From Candidatus Pacearchaeota archaeon (GTDB lineage: Archaea; Nanobdellota; Nanobdellia; Pacearchaeales; GW2011-AR1): a DNA stretch of 64,000 bases. The position numbers and the translations under genes are program-made. The stretch is taken from the NCBI GenBank assembly GCA_050302495.1, contig JBNLBP010000001.1, positions 127,269 through 191,268 on the forward strand. Reading direction: 5' to 3'. Shown in pieces: positions 1 to 7,242 of this stretch. Each line of letters opens with the position of its first letter. The first letter of the stretch is position 1. The notes beneath the pieces were generated by a model, which was not told where the DNA came from, made no database searches, and saw only the letters and a program-made list of their open reading frames with translations.

Positions 1-1365
1 AGGACATTCTATTCTTAATCATGTCATCTGTAACGCTTTCGTTCCTTAAATCTGCAAAAGGCACCCTAACTAAGAAAGGCGTATTGTGTCTTTCTGAAAG
101 CTTTACTATTGCAGTTCCTACTGGTAATTTAGAGAAAAATTCTTTCTTATCGTTTAACTGCATCAAATTGCTTATATCCATTATATCTTGAGGTAGTTGC
201 TGTTGGAATGCTATCTGACATGCAGAATTACCCTTAACTGTATCTGAAAGCTTTGAAATATGCTGATCAAGACAGATTAAACTTATACCGTATTCTCTCA
301 TTTCCCTATAAACCATGTCTGTAACTGATTCTGAAAGGAAATTAGTCTTATTCTTAAGGAAGATATTATGAGCTTCATCTACAAGTATAGCGTAATTGAA
401 ACCTTCATCTATTTTGTTTTGCTGTGATTTCTTTAGTTTGTATATATAAGTTAAGATATATTCTGCAAAGAATTTCTTTTCAATATTACCTAAGGAATTC
501 AACTCGAATATTACTTTCTTATCAAATAGATCTTCTACTGAAAGAGATTTCTTTCCATCGTAGTTAATTGCTTTTCCAAATTCTCCAAAAGTAAGTACTG
601 AGGCTATTCTTAATGCACTTTCATACCAAGTAGATTCTCTTCCAGAGGCCTCTCTAGCTTTCATTTCTAACATTCTTTTTACATGTTGCCAGTTAGGATA
701 GTGTTTAGAACCTTTGTAAACACCCCATCCTTCAAAAATTTCATCTAAAGTTTCCAATAATATCTTATGAACACCAAAAGAAACTGCGAAACTCTCTGTT
801 AAAAGATCACACAATACATTAATCCATTCTTTTGGGGCAACTCCTTTTGGAGGCTTATTTATATTCATTTTGAATAGATTGCTTACTGCATCGTTTCCTA
901 CTGTGAAAGCCATAACAGAGGGATCAGCTCCAACTAAAGGTCTGAAAGATTTCTTCCAATCAAATACCAAGAAAGGTTTTTCCTTCTTTATGAAATTGTT
1001 AAGAACATTAAAAGCTAAAGTAGTCTTACCAGAACCGGACATACCAGATATACAAACGTGTCTTGGCCAGTCTTTTTCTTGTAATGAGAAGTCGTAAAGT
1101 TCTTTTTCTCCATAAATTACCTTGGATAGAGGGTATTCTCCTGAAACTAAAGCTTCTTTTGGAGGTTCAAGTAAAACTTTTTGATCCAAGAATTTTCCTA
1201 AGTGTTTTTGGTATAAAGCTGCAAGAACATGAAGTATTTCGTTTTTTTCTTCTAGAGATTCTGAAAGAGTGTATCTAAAGTATAATTCGTCTATCTTACT
1301 TCCAAGTATAGGTTTAAGCTTGTTGCTTATGTCTTCAATTGTTAGTTTTTGTGTTTGTGTCATTT
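1..1365 (-). CDS. P-loop ATPase, DUF87/HerA-VirB4-like (C-terminally truncated by window edge)
   Basis: Minus-strand ORF starting at ATG 1365..1363 and running off the window. Translation shows Walker A GMSGSGKTT and Walker B hhhhDEAH (ILVDEAHNI). It was not in the ORF track because it has no in-window stop. Confidence 0.6.
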
Positions 1366-1408
1366 TCTTGTTTGTGTTTGAAGTTTAAGTTAAAAAAATA
1401 AAAAATGT

Positions 1409-1969
1409 TTAACTAAAGATATCCTCCTCAAACCTGATTTTTGCATCTTCGACAGCAGACTCCAATGCTTTTGCTTTGTTATTATATTTCTCTGCAAAAT
1501 TTGTATGATAAGAATCGACTTTGTTATGAGTGAATTCTTTTGTAACGTCTTGTGCAACATTTAAACTAAAATCTGCATCCAAATAATCATCTTGCATTAA
1601 TGCAATTTCTGTTTTCTTCAGATGCCTTTCAACTATTTTTTCCTTTAAATTTCTAACCTGTAACTTATAGAGATCTTTGTTATCTACTTCGTTAAAAATT
1701 AAGAAACTTTCTGCATCCCAAATTGAATCATTCCAATAAGAGGAGAAATCGTCTCCGTGTTTTACTTTGTCCAAAAAACCTTCAATAATTTGTTTTTTGT
1801 AAAAGTTTGGAGTTTCTTTCTGAGACTCCATTTCCCAATCTTGGAATGACTGTTCTGCACGAGAGTAATCGCCTTTTTCTAAATAAGAAATTCCTTGATA
1901 AAATGCATCTCTTGCTTCAGATGATTCTTTCTCAACAAAACCATATTTTGCTAATTTTGTGTTTTCCAT
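1409..1969 (-). CDS. hypothetical protein (acidic, 186 aa), same operon as the ATPase
   Basis: Track ORF. It sits 44 nt upstream of the ATPase gene on the same strand. No recognizable motif. Confidence 0.45.
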   Translation of the reverse strand: MENTKLAKYGFVEKESSEARDAFYQGISYLEKGDYSRAEQSFQDWEMESQKETPNFYKKQIIEGFLDKVKHGDDFSSYWNDSIWDAESFLIFNEVDNKDLYKLQVRNLKEKIVERHLKKTEIALMQDDYLDADFSLNVAQDVTKEFTHNKVDSYHTNFAEKYNNKAKALESAVEDAKIRFEEDIFS

Positions 1970-1986
1970 ATTAATTTAACTTCCTT

Positions 1987-2433
1987 TCAATTCTCCATTA
2001 GGATATTGTTTAATTCTATGAATCTAGCTTCTTTTTCAGCGAGTTCTTTCTCGTTTTCTCTAAGTTCTTTCTTAAGTAATGCTATATCTTTCCAACAATT
2101 GATCTTTTCATTAAGCTGGTGTTCTGAGATTTCTACCTTTTTGTTCCTTAGAGAATTCTTTTCTATAATTGGGTCTTTGTCTCCTAAAACTGCAGGAGAG
2201 TTCTCAATATCCAAAAGGAAGTTACTTATCTCTAGCTTTATTTCATCTCCTTCTCTTAGGAAGTTCTGACTAAGAATATTTCTTTCTTGAATCAACTTCT
2301 GGATTTCAGAAATTGTTCTTTTTAGGGAATTAACCTTATCTTGACCTATTGATCCAATAGAGTTGCCACTTGTGAGACTTGATATTTCGGGTCTTACCGC
2401 CTCTTCCGCATGGTATTTCATATTTTCCATCAT
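1987..2433 (-). CDS. hypothetical coiled-coil protein (148 aa)
   Basis: Track ORF. Heptad-like K/E-rich sequence. First gene of a three-gene minus-strand operon. Confidence 0.45.
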   Translation of the reverse strand: MMENMKYHAEEAVRPEISSLTSGNSIGSIGQDKVNSLKRTISEIQKLIQERNILSQNFLREGDEIKLEISNFLLDIENSPAVLGDKDPIIEKNSLRNKKVEISEHQLNEKINCWKDIALLKKELRENEKELAEKEARFIELNNILMEN

Positions 2434-2527
2434 TTCATAGTGATAACATACTTTATAAATGTTTCTATTTAGTAGTTACTCTATAGTTAGTACATTATCT
2501 TAAATAAAACAGGTCTCCTAGTTTAGA

Positions 2528-3289
2528 ATGGGTGAGATTCAAGACAAAGAGATAATTTCAGAGTTATGTGGGGCAATAATTGGCGATGGGTGGATCCAAT
2601 CAAATGAGAGGTGTTTCTTTCTTGCAGGAGATCCTACAGAAGATAGAGATTACTATGATTCCCACATTCCAGAAATATTTAGAAAGGTTTTGATAACTGT
2701 GACTCCAAAAGAATTCCCCTACTGGAGTGTCTATGGCATTTCAATATATAAGAAAGACATAATTCAGAAATTACTTTCTTGGAATATCCCCAAGGGCAAA
2801 AAAGTTGACACTGCAAGAATTCCAAACTGGATAAAGAAATCAGAGGATAAAGTTAAGAAAGCGTTCCTTAGAGGATTCTTTGATGCTGATGGAAGCATCT
2901 TCTGTCAAAAAGATTATACCAAATACGCGAAGGAATTTAATTCAAAACATCATGTTAAGGCTAGATTGAGAATAACAAGTATCTCAAGTAATCTTGTAGA
3001 TGAAATGAAGGGAATGTGTGAGGAAGTAGGGTTTAAAGTAATAAGAAGGACAATTAAAAGAGGGAGAATAAGTGAACGTAATTGTAAAGATATTCACATA
3101 ATTGAGATAAATCATTTGGAGAGTATAAGGAAATGGTTTGAAGAATTGAAGCCCTCTAACCCCAAACACACTACAAAATATCGGATATGGAAGAAATTTG
3201 GCTTTTGTCCTCCAAAAACGACGCTAATTCAGAGGAAAGAAATACTTAAAAATGAATTAAGCCCTTATTCATTCTATATGCAGGAGTAG
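2528..3289 (+). CDS. LAGLIDADG-family homing endonuclease (double-motif, free-standing)
   Basis: Two LAGLIDADG motifs read directly in the translation: ELCGAIIGDGWI and AFLRGFFDADGSI. At 253 aa it fits a monomeric two-motif enzyme. The stop codon overlaps the first 10 nt of tRNA-Leu. Confidence 0.8.
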   Translation: MGEIQDKEIISELCGAIIGDGWIQSNERCFFLAGDPTEDRDYYDSHIPEIFRKVLITVTPKEFPYWSVYGISIYKKDIIQKLLSWNIPKGKKVDTARIPNWIKKSEDKVKKAFLRGFFDADGSIFCQKDYTKYAKEFNSKHHVKARLRITSISSNLVDEMKGMCEEVGFKVIRRTIKRGRISERNCKDIHIIEINHLESIRKWFEELKPSNPKHTTKYRIWKKFGFCPPKTTLIQRKEILKNELSPYSFYMQE

Positions 3290-3363
3290 CGAAGTGGTCA
3301 AACGCGCAAGACTCAAGATCTTGTCTCTTAGTGAGTTCGAAGGTTCGAATCCTTTCTCCTGCA
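3280..3363 (+). tRNA. tRNA-Leu (anticodon CAA), long variable arm
   Basis: Hand-folded cloverleaf. Acceptor GCAGGAG/CTCCTGC. Anticodon stem CAAGA/TCTTG with loop CTCAAGA. Long variable arm. T-arm AAGG-TTCGAAT-CCTT. Discriminator A. Confidence 0.85.
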
Positions 3364-3459
3364 TAAACTTTATAAAGCCAAGATAATTCGGCATTATACG
3401 ACCTGCGAGTTAATCGCGTTAGCGGGGAAACATTTTTCTCGTTAATTGGATAATATAAA

Positions 3460-3831
3460 ATGATAAAATCAAAAACAAAGATATCGAAGCAATTAGAAAG
3501 AAAAACTAATCCAGAATTAGTCGAAACAATACTATTAGCTAAGAAGAGTGCTTCTTGGTTAGAAATTGCATCAATCTTGTCAGGATCTAGAAGAAAGAGA
3601 ATTAATATTAATCTAAGTGATTTAAGTAAAAGTATTGAAAGTGAGAAAATAGTTCTTATTCCCGGAAAAGTATTGTCTGAAGGAGAAATGGATAAAAAAG
3701 CAAAGATTGTTGCCTTAAACTTCTCTGAAAAAGCAAAAGAAAAGTTGATAAAAGCTGGATGCGAAGTTTCAAGTATACTAGAGGAAATTAAATCAAACCC
3801 TGAAGCTAAGGGTATTAAGGTGTTAAAATGA
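3460..3831 (+). CDS. rpl18e: 50S ribosomal protein L18e
   Basis: 123-aa basic protein. It begins the conserved archaeal L18e-L13-S9 cluster. Its end overlaps the L13 start by 4 nt. Confidence 0.75.
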   Translation: MIKSKTKISKQLERKTNPELVETILLAKKSASWLEIASILSGSRRKRININLSDLSKSIESEKIVLIPGKVLSEGEMDKKAKIVALNFSEKAKEKLIKAGCEVSSILEEIKSNPEAKGIKVLK

Positions 3832-4217
3832 AGGTAGTTGATGCAACAAATTATCCAATGGGAAGACTTGCAAGCTTTGTAGCAAAAGAAGCTTTGAAGG
3901 GGGAAGAAGTAAAGGTAATCAATTGTAACAAAGTCTTGATAACTGGAAGTAGAGAATATGTTGAAAAAGAGTTCCAAGTTAGAAGGGGAAGATATGGAAG
4001 TTCTCAAAAAGGACCAAGAATTTCAAAATCAAACGAACAAATAGTTAAAAGAACAATAAGAGGTATGCTTCCAAACTTTAGAGAAGGAAAAGGAAGAGAA
4101 GCTTACAAAAGAATAATGTGTTATAATGAAGGTTTAGGTGAAGAAGTTAAAGAGATTGTAACTCTTGGAAAAAGAAAACCAAAGAAATCAATTAAATTAG
4201 AATCAATGAGAAAATGA
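3828..4217 (+). CDS. rpl13: 50S ribosomal protein L13
   Basis: Translation MKVVDATNYPMGRLAS...VINCNKVLITG is typical uL13. Position is conserved, between L18e and S9. Confidence 0.85.
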   Translation: MKVVDATNYPMGRLASFVAKEALKGEEVKVINCNKVLITGSREYVEKEFQVRRGRYGSSQKGPRISKSNEQIVKRTIRGMLPNFREGKGREAYKRIMCYNEGLGEEVKEIVTLGKRKPKKSIKLESMRK

Positions 4218-4612
4218 AAGTAATCACATCAGGAAAAAGAAAGACAGCTATTGCAAGAGCTATACTTGAAGAAGGAACAGGAAAAGTTACAATAAATGGT
4301 CAAGATTACAAGAAATTACAAGAATTTGATAAGTTGAAATTGGAAGAGCCATTAAGAATAACTGAGAACATATTAGGAAAATTGAATTTCAATGTTGCAA
4401 TAAAAGTTAGAGGCGGTGGAGAAAAATCACAAGTTGAAGCATCAAGACTGGCTTTAGCAAGAGCAATTGTTGAATTTACAAAATCAGAAAAAGTAGAAGA
4501 TGCTTTCTGGGATTATGATAGAAATCTTCTTGTTGCTGATGTAAGAAGAAAAGAAGCTTACAAGCCTGGTGATTCCAAAGCTAGAAGTAAGAGACAGACA
4601 TCATATAGATAG
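4214..4612 (+). CDS. rps9: 30S ribosomal protein S9
   Basis: C-terminal ...KPGDSKARSKRQTSYR is the uS9 signature. 4-nt overlap with rpl13. Confidence 0.85.
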   Translation: MKVITSGKRKTAIARAILEEGTGKVTINGQDYKKLQEFDKLKLEEPLRITENILGKLNFNVAIKVRGGGEKSQVEASRLALARAIVEFTKSEKVEDAFWDYDRNLLVADVRRKEAYKPGDSKARSKRQTSYR

Positions 4613-5270: not shown

Positions 5271-5855
5271 ATGGGGTTGAGTTTAGATGATCTCTCTGAA
5301 ATAAGTCGGAAATTATTTAAGGAAGCGCAAGAAACAGAAATCAAGGAAGACTATGACCTTGCTTTGAGAATTTTAGACAAAGAAATTAAAACAACAAAAG
5401 ATCTTACAAGCCGTCATTACAACCAAAGAGGCATTTGTCTTTGTGCTCTTGGAGAATATAACAATGCAATTGAGAATTATAGTAATGCTATAGATCTTCA
5501 TAAAGGAGGGTTAGAAGACTCCGCAATACTTTATGCTAATAGGGGAGATGCTCAAGTCAAAAGAAATATGTTAATGAATGCTCTATCTGATTATAAAGAA
5601 GCAGTAATTAGGGATCCTAAAGCTAGCTATTATTTGTTTAAAATTTCAAAGATAAATAAAAAATTAAATCAAAAAGAAAAAATGAGACAAAATTTTGAAG
5701 AAGGATTAAGAGTATTTTGTACACAAATAAAGGATAAAGGTCTTAACAAAATATCTGAGGTAAAAAATGAATATCCAAACACATTGGAGATAATAAAAGA
5801 AATTTCGCAAGAAACAACGGATATAAATGTAGCATTGATGGGGTTATTTGAATAA
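5271..5855 (+). CDS. TPR-repeat protein
   Basis: Repeated TPR-like A/Y/N patterns, e.g. YNNAIENYSNAIDL and ALSDYKEAV. Confidence 0.5.
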   Translation: MGLSLDDLSEISRKLFKEAQETEIKEDYDLALRILDKEIKTTKDLTSRHYNQRGICLCALGEYNNAIENYSNAIDLHKGGLEDSAILYANRGDAQVKRNMLMNALSDYKEAVIRDPKASYYLFKISKINKKLNQKEKMRQNFEEGLRVFCTQIKDKGLNKISEVKNEYPNTLEIIKEISQETTDINVALMGLFE

Positions 5856-6410
5856 TTATTCAGAAATTTTTCTTCTTTTAGTTAAGGTATCTAGTTTATC
5901 TTGTACTTTATTAAATAATATTGAAGATACAATTGGTTTATGATCTGCTTCATGAATTTGACCATCAAATTTTATCTTTCCTATATAAGCAAAATTTCTA
6001 AGTATTTTCTTTAAACCATTTACGGAAAGTTGGTGTTTTTTTGATAGTGTGTTTAAGTTCATTCTTGGTTGTAAGAACTCTTCGAATATTTCTTCTACCT
6101 CTTCATAGTTTTGAGCTGGAACTAAAACTCCTGAATCATGATTTCTTTTATACCCAAATGGTGCTCTAGACATGTGTAATCCTTTAGAAGATTTCTTTAT
6201 CATCCCAATTTTTTGATTTTCCCCACGGAACTTAGAATATTTTCTTAAAGGTTCAAGATTCTTTTCAAGGATTTTTTCTTCAATATATACATCTAATTCT
6301 TCGGGAGTATTGGGGGAGAAAGTATGGCAAATACTACATAATGTTAGTCCAAACTTACTCTTGTTCTTATCCGAAACATACCCGCATTTTACGCATTTAC
6401 TTTCATTCAT
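5856..6410 (-). CDS. zinc-ribbon protein carrying a serine-recombinase-type recombinase (DNA-binding) domain, without a resolvase catalytic domain
   Basis: N-terminal CxxC...CxxC (CVKCG...CSICH). The remainder matches the recombinase-domain pattern of large serine recombinases (APFGYK...VLVPAQNYEEVEEIFEEF...LKKILRNFAYIGKIKFDGQIHEADHKPIVS..LFNKVQ). Its start overlaps the 3' end of the tyrosine recombinase gene by 8 nt. Confidence 0.55.
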   Translation of the reverse strand: MNESKCVKCGYVSDKNKSKFGLTLCSICHTFSPNTPEELDVYIEEKILEKNLEPLRKYSKFRGENQKIGMIKKSSKGLHMSRAPFGYKRNHDSGVLVPAQNYEEVEEIFEEFLQPRMNLNTLSKKHQLSVNGLKKILRNFAYIGKIKFDGQIHEADHKPIVSSILFNKVQDKLDTLTKRRKISE

Positions 6411-7242
6411 TTTGCATCAATCCATCTATAGGGGATTTTATTTTTTTTAATTGTTCCGTTGAAACGTGAGCGTAAATTTCTGTGGTCGCAAGGTTACTAT
6501 GGCCAAGAAGAGTTTGTATAAATCTTATGTCTGTTCCATTTTCTAATAAATGTGTTGCAAAAGAGTGTCTTAAGGTATGGCAGTGAACATCTTTGTTTAT
6601 TCCTGCTTTTTTTGCTGTATTTGAAACTATTTTTTGCATATTTCTAGGAGTAAGTTTTCCCTTTGGACCTGAGAAAATGTAAACTTGGTTGAATTCTTTT
6701 TGATTTTTAGCACGATTTTTTAGATCTTCATATAAGAATTCGGGAATATTAAACATACGATCTTTCTTTCCTTTAGCTTGTTTTACATAACCTATCTTAT
6801 TATCAAAATCTAGATCATCTATTTTAAGACTAACCAGTTCTGAAACCCGAAACCCACAAGCATACATAAGAGACATCATTAACCTTGATTTCTTATTTGA
6901 AGCGACATCAAACATCCTTTTGACTTCTTCTTTTGTTAAAACTGCAGGGATTCTTTTTTCTCGTTTTGGTCTTTTAATACCTTGAGTTATATCTTTTTTT
7001 AGAATATTTGAATAAGCATATTTAATTGCGGATAAGAAAACAATCGTTGAACTTGAACTTGAATCAGATAATCTCTCAACTAAGAAAAGTTTTAGATCGT
7101 CTTCACTCATATCATCTGGTATTTTATTTGTAAATATGAATAATTCATTGTTTGCTCTTAGATAGTTTCTTAAAGTATAATTGGAATTTTTAGAGATCTT
7201 CAGTTCTATTTCAAGTTTTTTTAGAAATTCTTCTGGAGTCAT
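6403..7242 (-). CDS. xerA: tyrosine recombinase, XerA/XerCD-like integrase family
   Basis: C-terminal catalytic signature HTLRHSFATHLLENGTDIRFIQTLLGHSNLATTEIYAHV. R (RVSEL) and K (GKKDR) are also present. Confidence 0.85.
   Translation of the reverse strand: MTPEEFLKKLEIELKISKNSNYTLRNYLRANNELFIFTNKIPDDMSEDDLKLFLVERLSDSSSSSTIVFLSAIKYAYSNILKKDITQGIKRPKREKRIPAVLTKEEVKRMFDVASNKKSRLMMSLMYACGFRVSELVSLKIDDLDFDNKIGYVKQAKGKKDRMFNIPEFLYEDLKNRAKNQKEFNQVYIFSGPKGKLTPRNMQKIVSNTAKKAGINKDVHCHTLRHSFATHLLENGTDIRFIQTLLGHSNLATTEIYAHVSTEQLKKIKSPIDGLMQNE

Follow-up and report, generated by a model that had tools for sequence, protein, structure and literature searches.

The window, by which we mean the whole 64,000-nt stretch of Candidatus Pacearchaeota archaeon DNA that was analysed, carries a free-standing LAGLIDADG gene whose reading frame closes inside a tRNA-Leu gene, ahead of a ribosomal protein operon. 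The features of the locus are as follows.

Positions 2499..2509, + strand: TATA-like box cTTAAATAAAA, read from sequence, 19-29 nt ahead of the ORF's ATG; putative promoter.
Positions 2528..3289, + strand: endonuclease ORF, ATG start, 253 aa, free-standing double-motif LAGLIDADG, without its own stop codon before the tRNA.
Positions 2561-2590, + strand: LAGLIDADG motif 1, ELCGAIIGDG (aa 12-21), with catalytic Asp20 at the end of helix 3-20.
Positions 2864-2893, + strand: LAGLIDADG motif 2, FLRGFFDADG (aa 113-122), with catalytic Asp121 at the end of helix 107-121.
Positions 3149..3277, + strand: C-terminal helical extension past the LAGLIDADG core, signature NPKHxTKYxIWKKFGFCPPxTTxxQRKEILKxxLxPYxFY; it forms the edge at which the cassette docks.
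Positions 3245..3253, + strand: TATA-like CTTAAAAAT, codons Leu-Lys-Asn, at -35..-27 from tRNA +1.
Positions 3280..3289, + strand: 10-nt ORF/tRNA overlap; the stop TAG (3287-3289) is tRNA positions 8-10.
Positions 3280..3363, + strand: tRNA-Leu(CAA), intact and intron-free, with a long variable arm and no encoded CCA; 'type A' allele.
Positions 3367..3376, + strand: ACTTTATAAA TATA box just 3' of the tRNA, presumably serving the L18e operon.
Positions 3460..4612, + strand: L18e (3460-3831), L13 (3828-4217) and S9 (4214-4612), a conserved operon on the downstream side, used to define the orthologous site.
Positions 6403-7242: tyrosine recombinase gene, 3 kb downstream.

A sequence-only reading of this DNA had described both LAGLIDADG motifs as intact, and the 253-aa ORF indeed matched Pfam LAGLIDADG_3 (E = 8e-8, 32.9 bits, cut-off 22.5). 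The Pfam scan of the ORF returned LAGLIDADG domains only, with no Hint and no extein sequence, and its NCBIfam matches were confined to intein LAGLIDADG domains. In the AlphaFold2 model of the protein (pLDDT 93), helices 3-20 and 107-121 are each followed by beta strands, and the C-terminal extension forms helices 212-224, 233-240 and 246-250 (pLDDT 96-98). A PDB sequence search with the protein gave no significant match, and the fold search alone was informative: the top Foldseek matches were the TliVMA intein endonuclease domain, I-Tsp061I, PI-SceI and I-DmoI (E 6e-9 to 1e-6; probability 1.00 for the last three), the best being 7qsu, from the intein-embedded LAGLIDADG group (E = 6e-9). The catalytic acidic residues are almost invariant in the family, Asp20 being present in 71 of 71 aligned members and Asp121 in 71 of 73 (with one Glu); D119 occurs in 73/73 and K92 in 72/73. 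The C-terminal signature is conserved in alignment A1 and in the 73-sequence alignment, its invariance being partly a selection effect of collecting family members by a C-terminal peptide pattern. As modelled, the window protein is a monomeric two-domain LAGLIDADG fold that keeps both catalytic Asp residues, its pair of LAGLIDADG helices packing two alpha-beta-beta-alpha-beta-beta-alpha domains within a single chain.

The tRNA boundaries were confirmed, and an intron excluded, by ARAGORN (3279-3364) and by a match to Rfam RF00005 at 3280-3363 (61.7 bits, gathering score 29) that covers model positions 1-71 in full. A minimum-free-energy fold of the tRNA gave no cloverleaf; the covariance-model match is the relevant evidence. 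The ORF ends ATG CAG GAG TAG, and CAGGAG is part of the acceptor-stem strand GCAGGAG (3280-3286), which upholds the earlier description of a 10-nt overlap with the acceptor stem of a long-variable-arm tRNA-Leu. This overlap is not due to chance, because the same edge-to-edge geometry repeats in dozens of homologous loci.

The box at 2499..2509 may act as promoter of a leaderless or near-leaderless endonuclease mRNA; in homologous loci, too, a TATA-like box lies ~30 nt ahead of the ATG, and it aligns with the tRNA promoter of sites that are empty of the gene. Within the ORF, the spacing of CTTAAAAAT agrees with that of a TTTTAAAT box at -32..-25 ahead of tRNA-Gln in the same window, and an AT-rich block recurs at -36..-27 across 34 tight-junction loci, weakly above the AT-rich coding background (at the median, 0.20 of background windows score at least as high). 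We rate 3245..3253 as a possible internal tRNA promoter, because the excess over background is small and the underlying Ile-Leu-Lys/Asn motif is also kept in clades that do not abut tRNAs; the notion of the internal TATA box as a strong signal was dropped on the same grounds. ACTTTATAAA occurs as a 10-nt direct repeat (2450-2459 and 3367-3376), and was rejected as a target-site duplication; it is a promoter and not an insertion scar, because empty sites have the equivalent TATA box after the tRNA too. A search for inverted and direct repeats around the ORF found no BHB-like pairing of its flanks with the tRNA start. Copies of the 5' end of the tRNA ahead of the ATG are not general across loci (mean best match 7.9/14; shuffled queries, 7.7), with L020 and L046 standing out as isolated exceptions. 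Bacterial-type promoter and terminator models, which are not applicable to archaeal promoters, returned nothing useful for the window.

The window protein belongs to a family of stand-alone proteins of ~250 aa in DPANN archaea, comprising at least 416 protein clusters (50% identity, E ≤ 1e-30), nearly all of them stand-alone proteins matched by the profile from end to end. Among 94 close homologues of ~250 aa, the best match to the window protein was 72% identical. The sequence-only reading did not see this membership of a large multi-partner family. Of 80 genomic loci, at least 53 have a structured-RNA gene directly against the ORF's 3' end or overlapping it. A co-oriented tRNA lies within 255 nt of the ORF end in 46 of the 80, with the stop codon inside the tRNA in 36; a conserved W codon is found 85-93 nt before tRNA +1 in 30 of the 46 co-oriented loci (85-104 nt in 33), and the edge-to-edge docking geometry is seen in at least 34 independent loci. 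At other loci, the ORF abuts multi-intron tRNAs, the 3' ends of opposite-strand tRNAs or the 3' end of SRP RNA, and in three loci a thiolase start, ATG/GTG-CGT-AGT, contains the ORF stop. The partners are clade-specific, namely tRNA-Leu(CAA), tRNA-Leu(GAG/AAG), tRNA-Arg(TCG), tRNA-Ile, SRP RNA and the thiolase start codon, and many of the endonuclease-linked tRNAs at other loci have introns. Commonly, the ORF has no stop codon of its own and its 3' end abuts or enters the conserved gene. P0009 has one context at all places, 5S - endonuclease - tRNA-Leu - tRNA-Pro - tRNA-Arg - tRNA-Gly; its contig breaks fall within 5S and after the tRNA cluster and are uninformative. The family is not viral, because a scan of viral contigs yielded only distant generic LAGLIDADG genes, 21-47% identical. 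Our literature search, which was incomplete in coverage, found no account of an endonuclease/tRNA docking arrangement, and this DPANN family of docked stand-alone LAGLIDADG genes is apparently undescribed so far. In general, each gene sits precisely at the edge of a conserved gene, mostly at tRNA +1, borrows the first bases of that gene as its stop and probably takes over the promoter.

Comparison with orthologous tRNA-Leu loci that lack the ORF, a check the sequence-only reading had proposed, defines the insertion as a clean indel of ~760 nt between promoter and tRNA +1. The ancestral gene order is rpoD (or 5S rRNA) - tRNA-Leu - L18e - L13 - S9, and both rpoD-tRNA-Leu-L18e-L13-S9 and 5S-tRNA-Leu sites are found either filled or empty (alignments A3 and A4). 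When 23 orthologous sites were picked by S9 alone, blind to the endonuclease gene, two (~9%) were filled. No endonuclease remnants were detected in the empty sites examined; 'KFGF' upstream of the L084 tRNA was considered as one and was not significant. There is no target-site duplication at filled loci, the insert being the ORF alone. Of the 80 copies, 72 are intact and ~6 have decayed, by frameshifts (L006, L010, L068 and L080) or internal stops (L027 and L055). In a neighbour-joining ribosomal-protein tree, built from ~380 aa and without support values, filled loci are interspersed among empty ones, and the closest relatives of filled loci are mostly empty. The left flanks vary among filled loci (rpoD, 5S rRNA or other genes), which limits homology-driven interspecies transfer. 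An exact-sequence look-up of the window's L18e, S9 and endonuclease proteins gave no identical record. As expected of a homing cycle, the gene is thus sporadic at a fixed site, with filled, empty and degenerate alleles all present. The arrangement does recur in distant relatives, as an ordinary gene would, but its distribution there is patchy and resembles that of a mobile element.

The tRNA allele linked to the endonuclease does not track host relatedness. Five of seven endonuclease-linked type A copies of tRNA-Leu(CAA), those of the window, L001, L002, L070 and L208, have the same first 26 nt in hosts with ribosomal proteins only 61-68% identical. L005 and L006 depart from this start at 1-2 positions, and closer relatives without the endonuclease have a tRNA allele that differs at 20-28 of 84 positions. 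For example, L070 (filled, type A) and L092 (empty, type B) share 77% of their ribosomal-protein residues and differ at 20 of 84 tRNA positions, and L001 and L084 share 73% with 28 tRNA differences, whereas the window and L001, at 61% ribosomal-protein identity, have only 6 tRNA differences and endonucleases 70% identical. The L070 and L006 tRNA alleles look mosaic. The link to type A is not absolute, because the CAA-clade copies L003, L004 and L059 adjoin type-B-like, intron-containing tRNAs. The shared 26-nt start conflicts with host relatedness, and specificity of the enzyme for type A sites could yield the same association as co-conversion.

Taken together, these observations make it likely that the ORF is a free-standing, site-specific LAGLIDADG homing endonuclease gene residing in a slot between the promoter and position +1 of tRNA-Leu(CAA). 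LAGLIDADG homing endonucleases introduce site-specific double-strand cuts into endonuclease-free alleles at targets of 14-22 bp. The filled, cleanly empty and decayed sites, the clade-faithful partners and the intact catalytic residues all fit homing at the tRNA-Leu flank, one of the options raised from the sequence at the outset; cleavage and mobility themselves are deduced from genes and alignments. By this mechanism, the enzyme would cut endonuclease-free alleles within or beside the 5' part of the tRNA gene, and double-strand-break repair off a filled allele would copy the ORF. In the CAA lineage, repair may often copy the adjoining 5' part of the tRNA as well (co-conversion), much as phage T4 Seg endonucleases do in 'intronless homing'. 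The endonuclease mRNA would then be transcribed from the native tRNA promoter, and the tRNA would be freed from the co-transcript by RNase P or be transcribed from the TATA-like Ile-Leu-Lys codons ~30 nt upstream.

Endonucleases are 58-70% identical between hosts with L18e+L13+S9 61-68% identical, within clades endonuclease identity roughly parallels that of the host ribosomal proteins at a similar level of conservation, and no near-identical endonuclease copies were found in divergent hosts. With an endonuclease conserved to roughly the same degree as the ribosomal proteins, vertical inheritance over long periods combined with repeated loss would explain much of the pattern without frequent horizontal homing.

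The same host-like divergence also speaks for a domesticated LAGLIDADG protein, i.e. a vertically inherited host gene, such as a DNA-binding regulator of the tRNA/ribosomal-protein promoter region or a tRNA-linked maturation factor, whose linkage reflects co-expression. The endonuclease-tRNA-Leu-L18e order is held down to ~35% protein identity, nine in ten copies are intact, and the C-terminal helices could be an extra DNA-binding module, with WhiA among the fold matches (ranks 34 and 47). In WhiA, the catalytic acidic residues have been lost, the protein is universally conserved in its lineage and the C-terminal extension binds DNA. In the docked family, however, both catalytic Asp residues are almost invariant, decayed copies occur, and the gene is present at only two of the 23 blindly sampled sites, with the nearest relatives of filled loci mostly empty. 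Neither a loss of catalytic residues nor near-universal presence, the hallmarks of WhiA-like domestication, is seen. A single host function is also hard to fit, because sister clades dock on partners as unrelated as tRNA-Arg, tRNA-Ile, the SRP RNA 3' end, opposite-strand tRNA 3' ends and the thiolase start codon. We therefore regard domestication, another option of the sequence-only reading, as unlikely.

Its remaining option, a relic of an ORF that formerly lay in a BHB or group I intron of a tRNA or rRNA gene, or in an intein, and was then stranded beside the tRNA, is highly improbable. By structure and among curated families, the enzyme comes closest to intein and archaeal rRNA-intron endonucleases, DPANN rRNA genes carry LAGLIDADG-encoding introns (PMC6125680), and introns interrupt many of the endonuclease-linked tRNAs elsewhere. 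At the window locus, in contrast, the tRNA model is uninterrupted, no group I intron in the window reached the gathering threshold, and neither an upstream tRNA exon or 5' fragment nor a BHB-capable inverted repeat joining the ORF flanks and tRNA start was found. A TATA-like box precedes the ORF's own ATG, Pfam shows no Hint or extein sequence, and the family includes hundreds of stand-alone proteins of matching length; the ORF is thus neither intron-encoded nor intein-encoded.

Integrases act on the 3' part of a tRNA gene, which they duplicate, and not on position +1. An ORF that is the cargo of an integrase/transposase-type element integrated at the tRNA, or accidental adjacency, is barely credible: tRNA genes are classic archaeal integration sites (PMC3293823) and a tyrosine recombinase gene lies downstream, but the insert is the ORF only, contains no recombinase and shows no direct repeat of tRNA sequence, viral contigs gave distant LAGLIDADG relatives only, and the docking geometry is repeated too often across independent loci for chance.

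Within the preferred reading of a homing endonuclease gene, a bolder and rather doubtful version would have the ORF move as a unit with the first ~26 nt of a type A tRNA-Leu(CAA) allele that resists cleavage, these nucleotides supplying the ORF stop. The resident tRNA would be cut, its 5' half overwritten and its promoter captured, and throughout DPANN archaea a family of such cassettes would cause alleles of tRNA genes and other conserved genes to be replaced. If true, this would imply obligatory mRNA-tRNA co-transcripts in which RNase P processing strips the stop codon from the mRNA, would be the first case of 'intronless homing' to be described from archaeal chromosomes, and would select directly for the fragmented and intron-bearing tRNA genes that are common in DPANN lineages.

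To our knowledge, nearly all known archaeal homing endonucleases reside in rRNA introns or inteins. The docked family offers a mechanism for horizontal tRNA-allele replacement and is a concrete candidate for the selective pressure behind fragmented, intron-rich DPANN tRNA genes. If active, it would be a natural set of dozens of LAGLIDADG specificities for tRNA-gene sequences, of use in meganuclease engineering. It also matters for annotation, as gene callers run docked ORFs from 3 to >100 codons into tRNA genes.

Among known systems, the intein LAGLIDADG enzymes (PI-SceI, TliVMA and the archaeal RFC, RtcB and GyrA inteins) provide the best structural match and the sole NCBIfam matches, but the window protein stands alone, with no Hint splicing domains and no exteins. 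The comparison with I-DmoI-type enzymes that the sequence-only reading suggested shows that the window protein shares with I-DmoI, I-Tsp061I and I-PorI the archaeal, monomeric two-domain LAGLIDADG fold with acidic residues at both helix ends (Foldseek E 8e-9 and TM 0.62/0.76 against I-Tsp061I, ~1e-6 against I-DmoI), at a sequence identity of only 13-19%. Those enzymes are encoded in rRNA BHB introns and are ~180-200 aa long, whereas the window gene is free-standing and intergenic and its product has an extra ~45-aa C-terminal helical extension. WhiA (DUF199), a Gram-positive transcription factor, resembles the window protein in its two-domain LAGLIDADG scaffold with a C-terminal helical extension (fold matches 8dy9_I and 3hyj_D); unlike WhiA, the docked family keeps the catalytic residues and is distributed sporadically.

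The closest parallel in gene arrangement is SegB, a free-standing endonuclease gene among the phage T4 tRNA genes, whose site lies around a conserved tRNA-gene motif; related genomes that have a homologous tRNA region lack SegB, and its spread is accompanied by co-conversion of tRNA markers on its flanks (PMC2330249). Like SegB and the other free-standing Seg/Mob genes of T-even phages, the window ORF is an intergenic endonuclease gene beside a conserved target and is missing from related genomes, with a tRNA allele that may travel with it. Unlike SegB, a GIY-YIG enzyme of a phage, the window enzyme is a LAGLIDADG protein in a cellular DPANN chromosome, its ORF joins the tRNA edge to edge and lacks a stop codon of its own, and each clade of its family is dedicated to one partner.

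The sequence-only reading had described a free-standing ORF with two LAGLIDADG motifs whose stop codon lies inside tRNA-Leu(CAA), and this was accurate by Pfam, ARAGORN and Rfam, as was the claimed 10-nt overlap of the two genes. The ORF matched Pfam LAGLIDADG_3 (E 8e-8, passing the curated cut-off) and ends in the codons ATG CAG GAG TAG; the tRNA matched the Rfam model in full, without an intron and with a long variable arm.

Features of the window at the junction
2499-2509: TATA-like box, 19-29 nt 5' of the ORF's ATG
2528..3289, + strand: endonuclease ORF, 253 aa, beginning at ATG
aa 12-21 of the ORF: LAGLIDADG motif ELCGAIIGDG
aa 113-122 of the ORF: LAGLIDADG motif FLRGFFDADG
3245-3253: CTTAAAAAT inside the ORF, -35..-27 from the tRNA
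3279-3364: tRNA-Leu(CAA) according to ARAGORN
3280-3363: tRNA-Leu(CAA) according to Rfam, 61.7 bits versus a gathering score of 29
3280-3286: 5' acceptor strand GCAGGAG of the tRNA
3287-3289: ORF stop TAG, tRNA positions 8-10

In an AlphaFold2 model of the protein (24 homologues as input; mean pLDDT 93, pTM 0.90), the LAGLIDADG helices 3-20 and 107-121 terminate at Asp20 and Asp121, which are kept in 71/71 and 71/73 aligned family members respectively. Foldseek searches of the PDB returned LAGLIDADG enzymes exclusively, the best matches being the TliVMA intein endonuclease domain, the archaeal rRNA-intron enzyme I-Tsp061I, PI-SceI and I-DmoI; a search of the PDB by sequence alone gave nothing significant. 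NCBIfam yielded weak matches to intein-containing proteins and none other, and the family thus carries no curated name. Past the usual LAGLIDADG core, residues 208-250 form three confident helices with the signature NPKHxTKYxIWKKFGFCPPxTTxxQRKEILKxxLxPYxFY.

The family proved to be large. A word-indexed search recovered 94 full-length homologues of ∼250 aa (29-72% identity, the query itself left out), and when 1.84 billion cluster representatives were searched with a profile, 416 clusters reached E ≤ 1e-30, almost all of them stand-alone proteins of 240-275 aa matched by the profile from end to end. Many homologues terminate in ...YKQE or run on as ...AGVSERSNE, which is the translated 5' end of a tRNA. 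Sampling by a C-terminal peptide pattern across GTDB species, with one genome for each, yielded 80 family loci (designated L001 etc. and numbered in their own coordinates) from Woese-, Pace-, Iain- and Aenigmarchaeota and their relatives. In 46 of these 80 a co-oriented tRNA begins ≤ 255 nt from the ORF end, and 36 of the 46 have the ORF stop codon within that tRNA; the distance from a conserved W codon to the first tRNA nucleotide (+1) is 85-93 nt in 30/46 and 85-104 nt in 33/46. ARAGORN missed multi-intron tRNAs directly following the ORF in L015, L021, L024 and others. Elsewhere, the ORF abuts the 3' end of an opposite-strand tRNA (L007, L064, L075) or one of two other gene edges.

Non-tRNA docking partners
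L030 5136-5443, - strand, opposite to the ORF: SRP RNA gene
L034 5770-6077, - strand, opposite to the ORF: SRP RNA gene
L036 ∼5708-5735, L048 ∼5699-5720, L053 ∼1171-1195: junction of the ORF with a thiolase-like gene start

In L030 and L034, which belong to a clade from bins labelled Hadesarchaea, SRP RNA serves as the partner, with its 3' end 5-15 nt from the ORF end, so the docking strategy extends beyond tRNA genes. In the Iainarchaeota clade of L036, L048 and L053, the TAG of the ORF falls within the ATG/GTG-CGT-AGT start of the thiolase-like gene (MRSVSII...). When 73 family members were placed in a neighbour-joining tree, each clade had a single partner: tRNA-Leu(CAA), including the window; tRNA-Leu(GAG/AAG); tRNA-Arg(TCG), a large clade; tRNA-Ile/Ala; SRP RNA; the thiolase start; and opposite-strand tRNA 3' ends. 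Site fidelity specific to each lineage is a hallmark of homing endonucleases. This tree, like that of the ribosomal proteins below, was built without support values and from short markers.

To sample the tRNA-Leu site blind to the endonuclease gene, we fetched 80 metagenomic loci of relatives with an S9 probe. The order conserved among them is rpoD - tRNA-Leu - L18e - L13 - S9, and of the 23 in which tRNA-Leu is co-oriented and ≥ 800 nt of sequence lies upstream, 21 were empty and two filled (L099, L103). The genome scan added rpoD - endonuclease - tRNA-Leu in L070, L011, L012, L013, L015, L017, L020 and L024, and a second context, 5S rRNA - tRNA-Leu(CAA), was likewise found filled (L002-L006, L208) and empty (L102, L105). 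Alignment of filled with empty sites revealed a clean indel of ∼760 nt consisting of the ORF alone. Since empty sites have a TATA box that aligns with the one 5' of the endonuclease ATG, the ORF appears to have been placed between the native tRNA promoter and +1. No endonuclease remnants were found in the empty sites. In an L18e+L13+S9 neighbour-joining tree filled loci were dispersed among empty ones, and the closest sampled relative of a filled locus was empty in 7/8 cases.

Flanking regions also varied. In some relatives tRNA-Leu alone is inverted between rpoD and L18e, the surrounding order being otherwise conserved (opposite strand: L083 4933-5018, L082 5028-5113, L089 4928-5011, L135 5082-5166). 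Comparison of window 1-3400 with L070, L097 and others showed that rpoD is absent 5' of the endonuclease-tRNA-Leu-L18e block; two other genes stand in its place, and the left flank is thus rearranged in this genome.

Other window features
1409-1969 and 1987-2433, - strand: two divergently transcribed genes, function not known, replacing rpoD
5856-6410, - strand: 184-aa ORF overlapping the recombinase gene
6403-7242, - strand: tyrosine recombinase, Phage_integrase E 8.5e-45

In the 184-aa ORF the N-terminus resembles a zinc ribbon, and the match to the Pfam 'Recombinase' domain is confined to the C-terminal portion of that domain; the region 5856-7242 may represent either a host gene of XerA type or what is left of an integrated element.

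Among the alternatives to homing, domestication of a LAGLIDADG protein as a host gene would account for the high protein conservation and for a divergence that partly tracks the host. Against it stand a site occupancy of about 9%, the retention of active-site residues, and about six decayed copies (frameshifts in L006, L010, L068 and L080; internal stops in L027 and L055), 72/80 matches being uninterrupted; moreover, one host function fits such unlike partners poorly. Integrase-type insertion is excluded by an indel that comprises only the ORF and lacks repeats. A tRNA duplication upstream of the ORF was sought and not found as a general feature, which disfavours both integrase- and transposase-type insertion. 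The intron- or intein-derived relic, one of the alternatives offered by the sequence-only reading, is excluded at the window locus, where the tRNA lacks an intron and no upstream tRNA exon is present. A viral origin is unsupported, as viral contigs contain distant LAGLIDADG relatives only. Upstream matches to the tRNA 5' end (12/14 or 11/14) occur ∼150 nt from the ATG in L020 and ∼66 nt in L046; these may represent a fragmentary or a second tRNA, and are isolated rather than family-wide.

The tRNA-Leu(CAA) genes fell into two sharply separate alleles. Type A, with the 5' start GCAGGAGTAGCGAAGTGGTCAAACGC, occurs at seven filled loci of the CAA clade (window, L001, L002, L005, L006, L070, L208) and at two empty ones (L094, L102); its first 26 nt show 0-3 differences between copies and are identical in 6/9. 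Between type B, which occurs at five empty loci, and type A, 18-32 of the 84 positions differ. The split disagrees with host relatedness: L070 (filled, A) and L092 (empty, B) share 77% ribosomal protein identity yet differ at 20 tRNA positions, and L001 (filled, A) and L084 (empty, B) share 73% and differ at 28, whereas the window and L001, with 61% identical ribosomal proteins and 70% identical endonucleases, have six tRNA differences. The L070 and L006 tRNAs join a type A 5' part to a B-like variable arm. The link to type A is not absolute, because the filled CAA-clade loci L003, L004 and L059 neighbour B-like, intron-containing tRNAs. Two readings suggest themselves: the endonuclease may cut the resident allele, with repair co-converting the adjoining 5' part of the tRNA, or it may be specific for type A sites, the A/B distribution having another cause.

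Many DPANN tRNAs adjoining family ORFs are interrupted by a single intron or by two or more, and not all of these introns occupy canonical positions (L021 5742-5881; L059 5750-5919; L091 4806-5013, a tRNA-Leu(CAA) with a 124-nt intron); further examples lie just 3' of the ORF in L022, L039, L063 and L073. Several of these tRNAs escape ARAGORN and the Rfam tRNA model or are given the wrong identity (for instance 'SeC', or 'Ile' for a likely Leu). In many DPANN loci the tRNA-Leu 5' of L18e has the anticodon AAG, in a TTAAGGC loop closed by a perfect 5-bp stem (L099 4843-4926; L103 2513-2596; also L093, L105-L112 and others); a Leu tRNA with A34 is, to our knowledge, unusual in archaea.

TATA-like boxes equivalent to that of the window precede the endonuclease ATG in relatives, which suggests that the former tRNA promoter would now drive a leaderless endonuclease mRNA. 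The CTTAAAAAT stretch inside the window ORF resembles in position the TTTTAAAT box at -32..-25 of the window tRNA-Gln. Over 34 tight junctions AT content is maximal at -36..-27, a modest excess over the AT-rich coding background, and the Ile-Leu-Lys/Asn motif encoded there is kept in all clades. With such a TATA-like block near the tRNA, two routes are possible: the tRNA may be transcribed from a promoter internal to the ORF, or RNase P may free it from an mRNA-tRNA co-transcript, in which case processing would remove the stop codon of the mRNA.

Several loci whose content is clearly of DPANN type (L008, L009, L015, L020, L021, L037, L041, L050) come from bins titled 'uncultured Methanosarcinales' or 'Patescibacteria group bacterium UBA2163'; these bins are probably mislabelled or contaminated, and some of the genome-bin names in the data are plainly in error. 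In the full-text literature searched, whose coverage is incomplete, stand-alone LAGLIDADG genes docked at tRNA +1 and other gene edges were not found described as a family of archaeal chromosomes, and the absence of an earlier description is therefore provisional. LAGLIDADG genes are carried by DPANN rRNA introns (PMC6125680), and free-standing homing endonucleases lie beside tRNA genes in T-even phages, where SegB of phage T4 recognizes a tRNA-gene motif and promotes 'intronless homing' (PMC2330249). It is this T4 SegB system that the co-conversion reading of the type A alleles resembles (PMC2330249).
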